IMG/VR virus record: IMGVR_UViG_2541047915_000005 | DNA: 6,316 bases | Reading direction: 5' to 3' (one strand) | DNA from: a virus | Taxonomy: Duplodnaviria; Heunggongvirae; Uroviricota; Caudoviricetes | Part shown: piece by piece, positions 1,133 to 6,316 of the stretch | Numbering within the stretch: the stretch's first letter is position 1 | Layout: every line of letters begins with the position of its first letter | Notes under the pieces: generated by a model | Told to the model about the DNA's origin: nothing | The model's input: only the letters and a program-made list of their open reading frames with translations | Database searches by the model: none | Made by a program: the position numbers and the translations under genes

Positions 1133-1558
1133 GATAGTTAAATGGATTGATGAAAATTAAAACTACACAGGTGGGCTCAGACTATTGGAGGAAGTTGGGG
1201 ACACTCAGAATCCTGTGGAATGAAATAAACCGGTCTATCCGTCCATTACCCTTTTAGCTGCGCTGTATCGTCGCCGTATTCCCGCATTAACCATGACCGT
1301 AGCCCGACGGGGAATTCCTTCTGCGTGAGTGTGCGGGAATAATTAAAAACGATGCACACCGGGTTTTTACCGCGTTAATGATTCGCGGGTTTATCCCGGT
1401 GCGATGGTGGAAGAAACAGGAAGCTGTATTACAGAAAGTGCTACTACTGTATCCCGATGCGATGTATGTAATGTGAGTCAGATAATGGCACAGGATGTGG
1501 TGATGTGGCAGTCTGGAACACAGGATATATTGTCAGAATAAGACCCGTAGGAATAAAA

Positions 1559-1885
1559 ATGAAAAGACGCCTTTTACTACTTTTTCTGTTATCTGTCCTG
1601 GCAGTGGGATGCTCGCAGCAAAAAGCTGATGAGCCCCGGCAATTAGTGACGGTGTATCCACGATATCCGGAATATGCTGCAGCAAATTATATCAAGGGGC
1701 TGGTTGAGGTTAAGTTCGATATTGGTGCTGATGGGACTGTGACACGGATCGTTTTTCTCCGCTCAGAGCCTCATAATTTGTTTCGTGATGAAGTGGTGAA
1801 GGCCATGGCGAAATGGCGATTTGAAAAGAATCGCCCCTGTCAGGGAGTGAAGAGACAATTTATCTTTACGCCGTCACGTCCTTGA
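1559..1885 (+). CDS. Small lipoprotein (108 aa precursor) with a TonB C-terminal domain; putative prophage cargo (moron) gene
   Basis: ATG at 1559 preceded by AGGA (1549-1552). The N-terminus MKRRLLLLFLLSVLAVGC has a positive n-region, hydrophobic core and lipobox-like LAVGC, with Ser at +2. The mature part YPRYPEYAAANYIKGLVEVKFDIGADGTVTRIVFLRSEPHNLFRDEVVKAMAKWRFEKNRP aligns with E. coli TonB C-terminus as recalled ([58 protein letters not shown]). The ORF track's upstream ATG at 1505 would add 18 residues before the signal peptide and is less likely. Stop TGA at 1883-1885. Confidence 0.75.
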   Translation: MKRRLLLLFLLSVLAVGCSQQKADEPRQLVTVYPRYPEYAAANYIKGLVEVKFDIGADGTVTRIVFLRSEPHNLFRDEVVKAMAKWRFEKNRPCQGVKRQFIFTPSRP

Positions 1886-1977
1886 TGCTTCCAGGTAGAG
1901 AGGGGCTGGAAGCAGGAGAAAAATGAAAGAGCCAGCGGTTATATTTTTGTCATGGCTGACGAGGAATGATGGAAGAA

Positions 1978-2000
1978 GGCGTTGTATGCCACACAACGCC
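1978..2000. terminator. Stem-loop (8-bp perfect stem GGCGTTGT/ACAACGCC, 7-nt loop) between convergent ORFs; possible bidirectional intrinsic terminator
   Basis: Stem 1978-1985 pairs with 1993-2000. A T-rich tract follows on the plus strand (TCACTGTTCATTTCTTCTTTTTCTC, 2001-2025) and a TTCTTCC tract on the minus side. The T-run is not immediately adjacent to the stem, so this is weak. Confidence 0.25.
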
Positions 2001-2007
2001 TCACTGT

Positions 2008-2187
2008 TCATTTCTTCTTTTTCTCTGGTGGAACCCGATGAATAAGAGTTGCACTGGTTTCCGATGAGATGGCGATATACTCGGGCAAAGTATGCTGGCA
2101 GTTTTCCAACTGGTCAAAAATACCTGCTCTCGTCTGTTGCAATGCCTGCAGCATGCGGCGGCAATGCGCCTTGCTTTTACTAACCAT
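2008..2187 (-). CDS. Hypothetical small protein (59 aa, basic KKKK C-terminus); the ORF track's longer version 2008..2361 uses an upstream ATG without an RBS
   Basis: Internal ATG (reverse complement of 2185-2187) is preceded by a strong Shine-Dalgarno (GATAGAGGAAGGAAAG-ATG). Product MVSKSKAHCRRMLQALQQTRAGIFDQLENCQHTLPEYIAISSETSATLIHRVPPEKKKK. I recognise no homolog. The C-terminal lysines are read from the T-rich tract that could equally be a plus-strand terminator tail, so this could be spurious. Confidence 0.3.
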   Translation of the reverse strand: MVSKSKAHCRRMLQALQQTRAGIFDQLENCQHTLPEYIAISSETSATLIHRVPPEKKKK

Positions 2188-2248
2188 CTTTCCTTCCTCT
2201 ATCAGTCGCTGCGTGAACTCATCATGGAATACCAGGTAAATGCGGATG

Positions 2249-2500
2249 TTATCGGTTTTGGCTACGCAGCATAGTACAAAACGGACAGGTGCATCCCGGG
2301 ACGGGGGAGGCGTCACATGTCCCTGTGATGGTTGTTCCGGGTAATGTACTGTGTGGGGCATAAAAATGTCCGATAATTTTACTTTCTACCGCAGTTAGTT
2401 GATTCGTTGGTCCTGGTAGCACATTGGGCGAGGATTTAAATGCCAGGCAACTGAAGGATGATGTCGCAAGGGAGATAGCGAGAATATTTCTGATTTTCAT
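2249..2500 (-). CDS. Hypothetical small secreted protein (83 aa precursor, predicted Sec signal peptide, Cys-rich mature part)
   Basis: ATG (reverse complement of 2498-2500) preceded by AGAGG 9 nt upstream. N-terminus MKIRNILAISLATSSFSCLA-FKSS looks like a signal peptide. Mature region has 4 Cys (GTCDASPVPGCTCPFCT). The ORF track lists a longer 2249..2569 version starting upstream. It overlaps the 2008..2361 frame, and I recognise no homolog. Confidence 0.3.
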   Translation of the reverse strand: MKIRNILAISLATSSFSCLAFKSSPNVLPGPTNQLTAVESKIIGHFYAPHSTLPGTTITGTCDASPVPGCTCPFCTMLRSQNR

Positions 2501-2648
2501 TTGATGATGCCTCTGTGTGAAATGACGGTAAACGACGCACTTGTGCCGGCACATAATAGCAAGCACCATAATAGATCAGATTCGATTCTTGCTGTAAGTG
2601 ATAATTATTCTCGTTTTCGGGTCCTTTCCGTCGATCCAACAGGTTACG

Positions 2649-2660
2649 GGGCGGCGACCT
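2649..2660 (+). other. cosN of a lambda-type cohesive-end site; the 12-nt sequence GGGCGGCGACCT corresponds to the left cohesive end of lambda
   Basis: Sequence 2641-2690 (AGGTTACGGGGCGGCGACCTCGCGGTTTTTCACTATTTATGAAAATTTTTC) closely matches the lambda cos junction and left end as I recall it (…CAGGTTACG|GGGCGGCGACCTCGCGGGTTTTCGCTATTTATGAAAATTTTCCGG). It lies 189 bp upstream of the Nu1-like start, the same spacing as in lambda (Nu1 starts at nt 191). Confidence 0.85.
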
Positions 2661-2696
2661 CGCGGTTTTTCACTATTTATGAAAATTTTTCAGGGA

Positions 2697-2810
2697 AAAT
2701 CGTGTCGGTACTTCTCGAATATAACTTTTTGTTTTTTTTAATATTGCATCCGTAAAGGTCCGACATGAAAGTGTCCGAAAATGCCTTTTTCTGGCGTTTT
2801 CATGTCGGGC
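2697..2810. promoter_or_regulatory. cosB-like region: three copies of a 9-bp core TC(G/A)TGTCGG arranged forward-inverted-forward (candidate small-terminase binding sites R3/R2/R1) with an AT-rich candidate IHF/bend segment between the first two
   Basis: TCGTGTCGG at 2700-2708 (+), CCGACATGA at 2760-2768 (reverse complement TCATGTCGG), TCATGTCGG at 2800-2808 (+). These sit at about +52, +112 and +152 from the cos left end. Lambda R3/R2/R1 are at similar positions and in the same orientation pattern but have a different core (CGTTTCC). The AT-rich segment 2709-2759 contains ATAACTTTTTGTTTTTTTTAAT, resembling the lambda I1 region. Confidence 0.5.
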
Positions 2811-2836
2811 CTTGTATTTGATAATGGGTTGTTTTC

Positions 2837-3385
2837 ATGAAGGTTAATAAAAAGAGGCTTGCCGAAATTTTCAACGTGGACCCGCGGACGATTGAACGCT
2901 GGCAGTCTCAGGGACTCCCTTGCGCCTCCAAAGGTAGTAAGGGCATTGAATCTGTATTTGATACTGCCATGGCAATTCAGTGGTATGCGCAGAGGGAAAC
3001 TGATATCGAAAACGAAAAGCTCCGCAAAGAACTGGCCGATTTGCGTGCGGCAGCGGAGTCAGATTTACAACCCGGCACCATTGACTATGAACGCTACCGG
3101 CTCACAAAAGCGCAGGCAGATGCGCAGGAACTGAAAAATGCCCGTGAAGACGGAGTGGTGCTGGAAACTGAACTGTTTACCTTCATTCTGCAACGTGTGG
3201 CACAGGAGATTTCGGGGATACTTGTGCGTGTGCCGTTGACATTACAGCGTAAATATCCGGACATTTCACCATCACACCTTGATGTGGTGAAAACTGAAAT
3301 CGCGAAAGCCTCCAATGTTGCAGCTAAGGCCGGTGAAAACGTGGGCGGGTGGATCGATGATTTCAGACGCGCAGAAGGCAGCTAA
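2837..3385 (+). CDS. nu1: Terminase small subunit (lambda gpNu1 family), 182 aa
   Basis: Product [28 protein letters not shown]...[28 protein letters not shown]... is collinear with lambda Nu1 as recalled (MEVNKKQLADIFGASIRTIQNWQEQGMP...[28 protein letters not shown]...). N-terminal winged-HTH region present. Stop TAA at 3383-3385. The gene sits immediately downstream of cos. Confidence 0.95.
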
Positions 3386-5285
3386 TGCAGCCGGTGCGAT
3401 AGCTACAGGGCTTTTATCTCTCATTATTCCTGTTCCACTGACGACAGTTCAGTGGGCCAATAAACATTATTACCTTCCTAAAGAGTCGTCTTATACCCCG
3501 GGGCGATGGGAAACACTGCCGTTTCAGGTTGGCATCATGAACTGTATGGGCAACGATCTGATTCGCACGGTTAACCTGATTAAATCTGCCCGTGTTGGTT
3601 ATACAAAGATGTTGCTGGGAGTGGAGGCTTATTTTATTGAGCATAAATCACGCAACAGCCTTCTTTTTCAGCCCACGGACTCAGCTGCTGAAGATTTTAT
3701 GAAATCTCATGTTGAGCCAACGATAAGGGATGTTCCTGCATTGCTGGAGCTGGCTCCATGGTTCGGAAGAAAACACCGCGATAATACGCTCACCCTGAAG
3801 CGTTTTTCCTCCGGTGTGGGGTTCTGGTGTCTGGGTGGTGCGGCAGCAAAAAACTACCGTGAAAAATCCGTGGATGTGGTCTGTTATGACGAGCTTTCCT
3901 CGTTCGAACCGGATGTTGAAAAAGAGGGTTCGCCAACCCTGCTGGGGGATAAACGTATTGAGGGCTCTGTATGGCCAAAATCCATTCGCGGCTCGACGCC
4001 TAAAATCAAAGGCTCCTGCCAGATCGAAAAAGCCGCTAACGAGTCGGCACACTTCATGCGTTTTTATGTGCCCTGTCCGCACTGTGGGGAGGAGCAGTAT
4101 CTGAAATTTGGCGATGATGCCTCGCCTTTCGGTCTTAAGTGGGAGAAGAATAAGCCAGAAAGTGTTTTCTACCTTTGTGAGCATCATGGCTGTGTGATCC
4201 ATCAGTCTGAGCTTGACCAGAGTAACGGGCGGTGGATCTGTGAAAACACGGGCATGTGGACCCGTGACGGCCTGATGTTTTTCAGCGCCCGGGGTGATGA
4301 AATTCCGCCGCCGCGCTCCATCACTTTCCATATCTGGACGGCGTACAGTCCGTTCACCACCTGGGTACAGATTGTCTATGACTGGCTGGATGCACTGAAA
4401 GATCCCAACGGCCTGAAAACCTTTGTGAACACCACGCTGGGCGAGACCTGGGAAGAGGCTGTGGGCGAAAAACTCGATCACCAGGTGCTGATGGATAAGG
4501 TTGTGCGTTACACGGCGGCGGTGCCTGCCCGGGTGGTTTATCTGACGGCGGGCATTGACTCGCAGCGAAACCGTTTTGAGATGTATGTCTGGGGATGGGC
4601 TCCGGGAGAGGAAGCCTTTCTGGTGGATAAAATCATCATTATGGGGCGTCCCGATGAGGAAGAGACGCTGTTACGTGTGGATGCGGCGATCAACAAAAAA
4701 TACCGCCATGCAGACGGAACCGAAATGACCATTTCCCGTGTCTGCTGGGACATCGGGGGGATCGATGGCGAAATCGTTTATCAGAGGTCAAAAAAACACG
4801 GTGTTTTCCGGGTGCTGCCGGTAAAAGGCGCATCTGTCTATGGCAAGCCGGTGATCACCATGCCAAAAACCCGCAATCAGCGGGGCGTGTATCTGTGTGA
4901 AGTGGGGACGGACACCGCAAAAGAAATTCTCTATGCCCGTATGAAAGCCGATCCCACGCCTGTGGATGAAGCCACGTCGTATGCTATCCGTTTTCCTGAT
5001 GATCCGGAGATTTTTTCGCAGACAGAGGCGCAGCAACTGGTCGCGGAAGAGCTTGTGGAGAAGTGGGAAAAAGGAAAGATGCGTCTGCTGTGGGATAACA
5101 AAAAGCGGCGTAACGAAGCGCTGGACTGCCTGGTGTATGCCTACGCGGCATTACGTGTGTCCGTGCAACGCTGGCAGCTTGATCTGGCTGTACTGGCAAA
5201 ATCCCGGGAAGAAGAGACGACCCGGCCAACCCTTAAAGAACTGGCAGCGAAGCTGTCCGGAGGAGTGAATGGTTACAGTCGCTGA
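3357..5285 (+). CDS. A: Terminase large subunit (lambda gpA family), 642 aa
   Basis: Product resembles lambda gpA along its whole length (e.g. [100 protein letters not shown]). Start chosen at ATG 3357 (MISDAQ...), overlapping the nu1 3' end by 29 nt as in lambda. The ORF track's ATG at 3315 is less likely. Stop TGA at 5283-5285. Confidence 0.95.
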
Positions 5286-5475
5286 ACTGCAGGCGCTGCG
5301 TCAGGCGCGCCTTGATTTATTAACCGGTAAACGGGTGGTGTCTGTCCAGAAAGATGGTCGCAGAATTGAATATACGGCGGCTTCTCTGGATGAGCTTAAC
5401 CGGGCGATCAATGATGCGGAGTCGGTACTGGGGACAACCCGGTGTCGCCGTCGTCCGCTGGGAGTGAGGTTATGA
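5269..5475 (+). CDS. W: Head-tail joining / head completion protein (lambda gpW family), 68 aa
   Basis: Product [68 protein letters not shown] has the same length as lambda gpW and shares its motifs ([23 protein letters not shown]...RRRGP). GGAGG sits 6 nt upstream of the ATG. Start overlaps the end of A by 17 nt. Confidence 0.9.
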   Translation: MVTVAELQALRQARLDLLTGKRVVSVQKDGRRIEYTAASLDELNRAINDAESVLGTTRCRRRPLGVRL

Positions 5476-6316
5476 AACGAACGCCTGTCCTGATTGATGT
5501 GAACGGCGTTCCGCTTCGTGAGAGTCTCAGCTACAACGGGGGCGGTGCAGGATTTGGCGGGCAAATGGCTGAGTGGTTGCCACCGGCGCAGAGTGCCGAT
5601 GCGGCCCTGCTGCCCGCGTTGCGTCTGGGGAATGCCCGGGCAGATGATCTGGTGCGCAATAACGGAATAGCGGCTAATGCGGTGGCTCTGCATAAGGATC
5701 ACATTGTCGGGCATATGTTTCTGATCAGCTACCGTCCGAACTGGCGCTGGCTGGGGATGCGGGAGACCGCAGCAAAAAGCTTTGTCGATGAGGTGGAGGC
5801 GGCCTGGTCGGAATACGCCGAAGGGATGTTTGGCGAGATCGACGTGGAAGGAAAACGCACGTTCACGGAATTTATCCGTGAAGGTGTGGGCGTTCATGCG
5901 TTTAACGGCGAAATCTTTGTGCAGCCGGTCTGGGATACGGAAACCACGCAGTTATTCCGTACGCGTTTTAAAGCCGTGAGTCCGAAACGGGTGGACACGC
6001 CTGGACACGGTATGGGGAACCGTTTTCTGCGGGCCGGTGTGGAGGTCGATCGATATGGCCGTGCCGTCGCGTACCATATCTGTGAGGATGATTTTCCGTT
6101 CTCTGGTAGTGGACGATGGGAACGGATCCCGCGTGAACTTCCCACCGGGCGTCCGGCCATGCTGCATATTTTCGAGCCGGTGGAGGACGGGCAGACCCGT
6201 GGGGCTAATCAGTTTTACAGCGTCATGGAACGGCTGAAGATGCTCGATTCCCTGCAGGCAACACAGCTTCAGTCGGCCATAGTGAAGGCGATGTATGCAG
6301 CGACGATTGAAAGTGA
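5472..6316 (+). CDS. B: Portal protein (lambda gpB family), 5' portion only; continues beyond the window
   Basis: ATG at 5472-5474 overlaps the W stop (ATGA). Manual translation gives MKRTPVLIDVNGVPLRESLSYNGGGAGFGGQMAEWLPPAQSADAALLPALRLGNARADDLVRNNGIAANAVALHKDHIVG...HAFNGEIFVQPVWDT...IFEPVEDGQTRGANQFYSVMERLKMLDSLQATQLQSAIVKAMYAATIES, which matches lambda gpB as recalled (...NARADDLVRNNGYAANAIQLHQDHIVG...HAFNGELFVQATWDT...VFEPVEDGQTRGANVFYSVMEQMKMLDTLQNTQLQSAIVKAMYAATIES). Absent from the ORF track because there is no stop in the window. Confidence 0.93.
   Translation, partial: MKRTPVLIDVNGVPLRESLSYNGGGAGFGGQMAEWLPPAQSADAALLPALRLGNARADDLVRNNGIAANAVALHKDHIVGHMFLISYRPNWRWLGMRETAAKSFVDEVEAAWSEYAEGMFGEIDVEGKRTFTEFIREGVGVHAFNGEIFVQPVWDTETTQLFRTRFKAVSPKRVDTPGHGMGNRFLRAGVEVDRYGRAVAYHICEDDFPFSGSGRWERIPRELPTGRPAMLHIFEPVEDGQTRGANQFYSVMERLKMLDSLQATQLQSAIVKAMYAATIES

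Follow-up and report, generated by a model that had tools for sequence, protein, structure and literature searches.

A cos region in a lambdoid Escherichia coli prophage that matches the cos site of phage 21

The packaging specificities of phages lambda and 21 form the classic model pair of terminase-DNA recognition. The sites of cosB are ordered R3-I1-R2-R1, with R2 inverted, and serve a shared mechanism in which a TerS winged-HTH dimer docks across an IHF-induced bend and anchors TerL for accurate nicking of cosN (PMC9026076, PMC4856287). In lambda, cosQ is additionally required for packaging termination (PMC4669245), and I2, at roughly bp 18-50, is an essential bent spacer (PMC4856287). Phage N15 has a lambda-like cos in which the winged-HTH domain of TerS recognises R3 at a similar distance from cosN; the N15-type 'simple' cosB has one R3 alone, lacking the IHF site as well as R2 and R1 upstream of terS (PMC4669245). 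According to Feiss and colleagues (2015; PMC4669245), the packaging specificities of lambda and 21 are mutually exclusive, each phage favouring its own DNA over that of the other by a factor of more than 1000, and this discrimination is attributed to differences in the recognition helix and in the R sites. That paper considers two R3 base pairs, 56 and 59, and two TerS residues, 20 and 24, to be important in both recognition and discrimination, and infers a clash of lambda TerS Glu24 with G.C at bp 56 of R3-21. It also describes helper-packaging experiments in which lambda-specific terminase failed on the phage 21 cos, whereas the 21-specific enzyme packages it (PMC4669245). The sequence, annotation and genetics of the phage 21 cos have been worked out before, as has the structure of the phage 21 TerS DNA-binding domain. 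Growth of phage 21 reportedly depends on IHF, a finding ascribed to Feiss, Frackman and Sippy in 1985.

Here we analysed a 6,316-bp stretch of viral DNA (hereafter the window) for its relation to these systems. Positions 2618-2836 almost certainly constitute the cos of a lambdoid prophage of the phage 21 type, with cosB at 2698-2813. A distant blastn search against a phage collection matched 2560-2900 to positions 78-418 of M81255 at 100% (341/341), the title of record M81255.1 being "Bacteriophage 21 head gene operon", and blastn likewise gave a 100% match between 2649-2900 and bp 1-252 of the complete phage 21 genome OL657228.1. Bp 1 of the mature left end, which is bp 1 of OL657228, therefore lies at 2649, and window coordinates equal those of M81255 plus 2482. 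Identity with both records is 99.8-99.9% from 2483 to 6316; within 2483-3500 the window differs from them at two bases, 3036 and 3157, both in gene 1 and none in cos. The depositors' R3, I1, R2, R1, cosN and gene 1 (M81255) coincide with the features of the window, as does cosQ/R4, and OL657228 marks identical R3, I1, R2 and R1 as small-terminase or IHF binding sites, describing R2 as "in opposite orientation to R3 and R1". In M81255 the three R boxes are binding features of 'gp1 of terminase' and carry the label 'putative'. The cosB of the window is thus already known, and in comparison with phage 21 the context alone differs, the site lying here in a chromosomal prophage of E. coli (e.g., strains AH21I008 and S88) with an IS3-family element upstream. 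The features are as follows.

2618..2629, plus strand: cosQ, GGGTCCTTTCCG, named 'R4' in M81255 (feature 136-147); conserved relative to lambda and relatives
2632..2678, plus strand: cosN region (M81255 feature 150-196)
2649-2660, plus strand: 12-nt cohesive end GGGCGGCGACCT, annotated as nicking subsite in OL657228 (bp 1-12)
2666..2698 (bp 18-50), plus strand: I2 segment, AT-rich bent spacer between cosN and cosB; conserved
2678-2692: 'I2' IHF site of M81255, within the I2 segment
2698..2713 (bp 50-65), plus strand: R3 box AATCGTGTCGGTACTT, small-terminase (gp1) site by the annotation of M81255 and OL657228
2722..2734 (2720-2734 in M81255), minus strand: I1 IHF site, reading AAACAAAAAGTTA on the minus strand, 12/13 of the consensus
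2755..2770 (bp 107-122), minus strand: R2 box, minus-strand sequence TTTCATGTCGGACCTT; orientation opposite to that of R3 and R1
2798..2813 (bp 150-165), plus strand: R1 box TTTCATGTCGGGCCTT, annotated in M81255 and OL657228
2820..2834, minus strand: putative IHF site 'I0' of M81255, overlapping the gene 1 ribosome-binding site (2826-2829)
2837..3385, plus strand: gene 1 (terS, Nu1 homologue), 182 aa; Pfam Phage_Nu1, 1.1e-80
3357..5285, plus strand: gene 2 (terL, gpA homologue), with ATPase and endonuclease domains; Pfam GpA_ATPase and GpA_nuclease; M81255 CDS 875-2803

The start of gene 2 overlaps the end of gene 1, and within the putative I0 the minus strand fits the IHF consensus at 2822-2834 apart from one mismatch. 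All components of a lambda-like 'complex' cos are present (cosQ, a 12-nt cosN, I2, three R boxes with I1, and genes of the Nu1 and gpA families), together with the marks of the phage 21 type, namely nucleotide identity, an R3-I1-R2(inverted)-R1 array with the 21 core, a TerS with E20 and S24, and the IHF site. The three boxes and I1 also separate the locus from the N15-type 'simple' cosB. The identity to phage 21, the repeat statistics and the conservation were computed here; binding, bending and specificity are taken from the phage 21 and lambda literature.

The 6316-bp window holds three exact copies of the core TCRTGTCGG, at 2700-2708 (+), 2760-2768 (-) and 2800-2808 (+), and no others. In shuffles that preserve dinucleotides (n = 200) the mean was 0.10, and three or more copies arose in 0/200. 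Allowing one mismatch yields 5 occurrences in the window against 2.63 expected, which is not above chance, so the signal resides in the exact clustered triple. Since the cohesive end begins at 2649, the 9-bp cores start at bp 52, 112 and 152, the forward-inverted-forward positions that an earlier note on this DNA, made from the letters alone, had proposed. The range given there (2697-2810) is too short, omitting the last 3 bp of the 16-bp R1 (2798-2813). Generic repeat finding returned just the R2/R1 palindrome and short chance pairs, and a search for exact 8-mer triples gave no result, since one core base sets R3 apart from R2 and R1; a forward-inverted-forward 6-mer search recovers the triple. 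The AT-rich, lambda I1-like segment that had been placed between the first two cores was likewise found. The R3-R2 spacer is 76% A+T, compared with 49% for the whole window, and TAACTTTTTGTTT at 2722-2734, read on the minus strand, departs from the IHF consensus WATCAANNNNTTR at a single position; it lies at bp 74-86, the same base pairs that hold TAACTTAATGTTT in lambda. Matches to this consensus number 6 in the window versus 4.97 expected and are not significant alone; for I1, position and homology carry the weight rather than the consensus match.

Several human E. coli isolates carry the entire window on their chromosomes at 100% identity (e.g., NZ_CP196251), and 1133-6316 shares 99.9% identity with the deposited phage genomes PhiR57_1 and PhiR63_2 (host ECOR13). 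Positions 1-1132 are part of the IS3-family element, on the minus strand, whose transposase has a programmed frameshift. The insertion lies about 1.5 kb upstream of cos, between an iss/bor gene and a TonB_C-domain gene, both of which come after the lysis cassette of a lambdoid prophage. Most related prophages lack this element, as do PhiR57_1 and PhiR63_2, and other strains carry different insertion sequences (IS66-like ISCro1, ISEc52) somewhere in the stretch homologous to the window. Two ORFs are prophage cargo between the lysis cassette and cos:

1559-1885, plus strand: 108-aa protein containing a TonB C-terminal domain (Pfam TonB_C, 7e-13) and a lipoprotein-like signal
2008-2361, minus strand: 117-aa ORF with no Pfam match, annotated in PhiR57_1; RefSeq has a different short plus-strand CDS

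Downstream, and mostly beyond the window end, the portal gene measures 1539 nt in NZ_CP196251.1 (7972-9510) and 1593 nt in PhiR57_1 (6840-8432; locus coordinates in both cases), a difference that could stem from another start call or an indel.

With an insertion sequence nearby, and with many E. coli prophages being defective, the repeats might be functionless relics of a decayed prophage; alternatively, they might have clustered by chance. The shuffles described above speak against the latter. As to decay, cos and the terminase genes are intact despite the insertion, cos, terS and terL are 99.8-100% identical to viable phage 21, PhiR57_1 and PhiR63_2, and the cores are retained in diverged relatives. 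A relic or chance origin, to which we assign hardly any probability, is excluded by the statistics and by the identity to functional phages.

Comparison with lambda separates a shared framework from divergent boxes. The cohesive end is identical to that of lambda (12/12), and bp 13-48 agree at 29/36 positions with mismatches mostly after bp 41, in keeping with the near-identity over cosN and the first ~40 bp to its right that had been noted from the sequence. When the region was aligned with both phages, as the earlier note had recommended, the match to phage 21 was 100%, whereas cosB (bp 49-166) agrees with lambda at 74/118 positions. Lambda has the same order (cosQ-cosN-I2-R3-I1-R2-R1), the same forward-inverted-forward orientation, an IHF site at bp 74-86 and near-equal spacing, its CGTTTCC cores starting at bp 53, 114 (inverted) and 155 and the equivalent 7-bp cores of the window at 53, 113 and 153. 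The boxes read:

R3: window AATCGTGTCGGTACTT, lambda AGGCGTTTCCGTTCTT
R2: window TTTCATGTCGGACCTT, lambda TGTCGTTTCCTTTCTT
R1: window TTTCATGTCGGGCCTT, lambda TGTCGTTTCCTTTCTC

Within the R3 core, CGTGTCG here and CGTTTCC in lambda differ only at bp 56 (G in place of T) and bp 59 (G in place of C); R2 and R1 differ from their lambda counterparts at 6-7 of 16 positions. The contention that the core departs from the lambda R elements therefore holds, as substitutions in all three boxes, but the two are not unrelated: by alignment, the window core is the same box, a lambda R box with substitutions, homologous to the lambda core.

The small terminase subunit differs from lambda in a corresponding manner. 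The TerS of the window is identical to phage 21 gp1 at 181 of 182 residues and shares 53% with lambda Nu1, a member of the same family, the Phage_Nu1 Pfam match spanning the full-length protein. Over residues 1-54 it matches both phage 21 gp1 and the PDB 7LWR chain without a single difference. The sole difference from phage 21, D67A (nt 3036), falls in the helical core region, outside the DNA-binding domain, and the difference at 3157 leaves the protein unchanged. In the N-terminal winged-HTH domain, the helix RTIERWQS carries E20 and S24, where lambda Nu1 has Q20 and E24. Lambda Nu1 residues 14-28 are ASIRTIQNWQEQGMP, and the same-numbered residues of the window TerS differ, so the earlier statement that the Nu1-like N-terminal DNA-binding region is distinct from that of lambda is correct for residues 14-28, among them 20 (E/Q) and 24 (S/E).

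Such resemblance to lambda leaves room for the reading that the prophage has ordinary lambda packaging specificity and that its repeats are a drifted lambda cosB still recognised by lambda Nu1, given that the prophage shares cosQ and cosN with lambda and has nearly the same layout and spacing of R3-I1-R2-R1. However, CGTTTCC, the mark of a lambda-type cosB, is absent from both strands of the window, the boxes differ at the recognition base pairs, and residues 20 and 24 of the TerS helix are not those of lambda. Moreover, the helper experiments in PMC4669245 left the identical phage 21 cos unpackaged by lambda-specific terminase. These sequence differences, together with the published behaviour of the identical site, exclude lambda specificity, whose chance of being correct we put at practically nil. 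The locus would instead unite lambda cohesive ends with a small-terminase specificity of its own, of the kind that distinguishes lambda from 21, as had been surmised before; the region is almost certainly nothing other than the phage 21 cos itself.

Conservation of the repeats follows the same lines. In a distant search, 2690-2836 was matched in 1225 of 5426 complete E. coli genomes, at identities from at least 99% down to about 76%. An alignment of six relatives showed the R3 core with its 3' flank and the I1, R2 and R1 cores to be invariant or nearly so, with drifting spacers and flanks and the same TerS residues 14-28 in every relative that has terS. Variant 21-type E. coli prophages, some beside ylcI/ynfO-family genes and O157:H7 included, have the same R cores, I1 and TerS helix but drifted spacers and flanks, their cosB segment being 76-86% identical overall. 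Across 41 distinct relatives, 25/37 positions are invariant in 2661-2697 (I2) and 13/16 in R3, a profile that is partly circular because loci were picked by a regular expression on the cores. An unbiased count comes from 80 IMG/VR viral contigs chosen by TerS similarity alone (93-100% identity), of which 76 carry a forward-inverted-forward CRTGTCGG triple within 200 bp upstream of terS. The check on conservation suggested in the earlier note thus came out in its favour, with the repeats kept in 76/80 contigs and, together with I1, in E. coli relatives of 76-98% identity, and the proposal was not overturned because the repeats are conserved and track the protein.

A scan of genome contigs with TerS gave 13 loci, all from other genera. 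Three-copy forward-inverted-forward cores with lambda-like spacings of about 60 and 40 bp were present in the following:

Buttiauxella: TerS helix TIERWQAEG, core ATGTCG x3
Citrobacter: TerS helix TIQNWQDQG, core CGTTTC / GTTTCC x3
Serratia: TerS helix TITTWQSQG, core CACTTC / ACTTCC x3

The Citrobacter cores are the two halves of lambda CGTTTCC. Across genera, helix and core change together. The Serratia combination of CACTTC/ACTTCC with TITTWQSQG appears to be a further specificity class.

The inverted R2 and R1 boxes could also act in RNA, and we considered whether R2, spacer and R1 (2755-2813) are mainly a hairpin or terminator on the late transcript, instead of or besides being binding sites. 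The segment lies upstream of the gene 1 ribosome-binding site and folds with 26 pairs at -35.5 kcal/mol (z = -7.3), a terminator scan gives a weaker stem (2790-2809) with a T-rich tail after it, and a comparable dyad lies between R2 and R1 of lambda. The outer stem is uninformative, however, since inverted copies of one 16-bp box pair with each other by necessity. The covariation term was unfavourable (+0.75) across 14 distinct relatives, compensatory change was seen in 2/19 pairs and the spacer middle was not consistently paired; the Buttiauxella relative keeps the boxes without the hairpin. The terminator-like count of 2 versus 0.7 in shuffles was not above expectation, and no Rfam family matched. 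In view of a strong fold that comes with neither covariation support nor an Rfam match, an RNA role as the primary function of the dyad was rejected, and we consider such a role very unlikely. A short A/T inner stem of the R2-R1 spacer is kept in most E. coli relatives. Promoter and terminator counts over 2400-2950 were not clearly above those of shuffles, which fits the situation in lambda, where late transcription reads through cos.

As terminase binding sites of the phage 21 type, the boxes would be expected to work as follows. Bending of the AT-rich I1 by IHF would allow a dimer of TerS DNA-binding domains to dock on R3 and R2 across the bend, and the docked TerS would hold the large subunit encoded by gene 2 at the fixed distance needed for nicking cosN at 2649-2660. 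Nicking would yield 12-nt cohesive ends identical to those of lambda, after which the terminase would remain on the cosB end and begin packaging. Specificity relative to lambda would stem from a few R-box base pairs matched by changes in the recognition helix: G.C for T.A at bp 56 and G.C for C.G at bp 59 of R3, with E20 and S24 in TerS in place of lambda Q20 and E24.

The 21-type cosB is also found beside other cohesive ends. In an alignment of the prophages of NZ_CP080233.1 and NZ_CP025892.1 (columns 55-90), which have the 21-type cosB and TerS helix, variants were read at the place of the cohesive end: GGGGGTCATAGCACGCGC in the O139:H1 P15-25 prophage, as well as in an island of LR882057, and GGGGCGGAAGGCGCGCG in the prophage of strain 503025. 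CosB-21 is therefore combined with at least three cosN variants. The Buttiauxella, Citrobacter and Serratia loci (230 bp upstream of terS) have variant cohesive-end regions too. The island, roughly 7.5 kb between thiM and rcnR of E. coli NZ_LR882057.1 (locus coordinates about 5200-12713), encodes a tyrosine integrase, an HTH regulator, an Icd-like protein and a PerC-family regulator. Its cos-like site (8926-9115) comprises cosQ, the variant cohesive-end region, I2, a 21-type R3, I1, a degenerate R2 and an intact R1. No terS follows this site in the island, similarity spanning only the first few codons' worth. The island looks like a satellite or PICI-type element that carries a helper-type cosB. 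Should the island be a satellite copying the cosB of its helper, it would be unlike the E. coli PICIs described to date, which reportedly have no phage cosB and use Rpp proteins to redirect TerS (PMC6092414, PMC9026076). That the 21-type cosB module (R3-I1-R2-R1) is a unit moving independently of cosN and terS is conceivable, though we think it unlikely.

Because the lambda/21 pair is already a classic model, the feature described here adds no discovery in itself. Its value lies in correct annotation, i.e., in recognising that this prophage carries a phage-21-type packaging module. The case is also a useful positive control, as a reader without tools correctly deduced, from the raw sequence, both how the site is built and that its specificity has switched. 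The prophage occurs in human bloodstream, avian and other E. coli isolates. It would not cross-package lambda-specific DNA, and it would package a cosmid, satellite or co-resident prophage only if that DNA carried 21-type R boxes.
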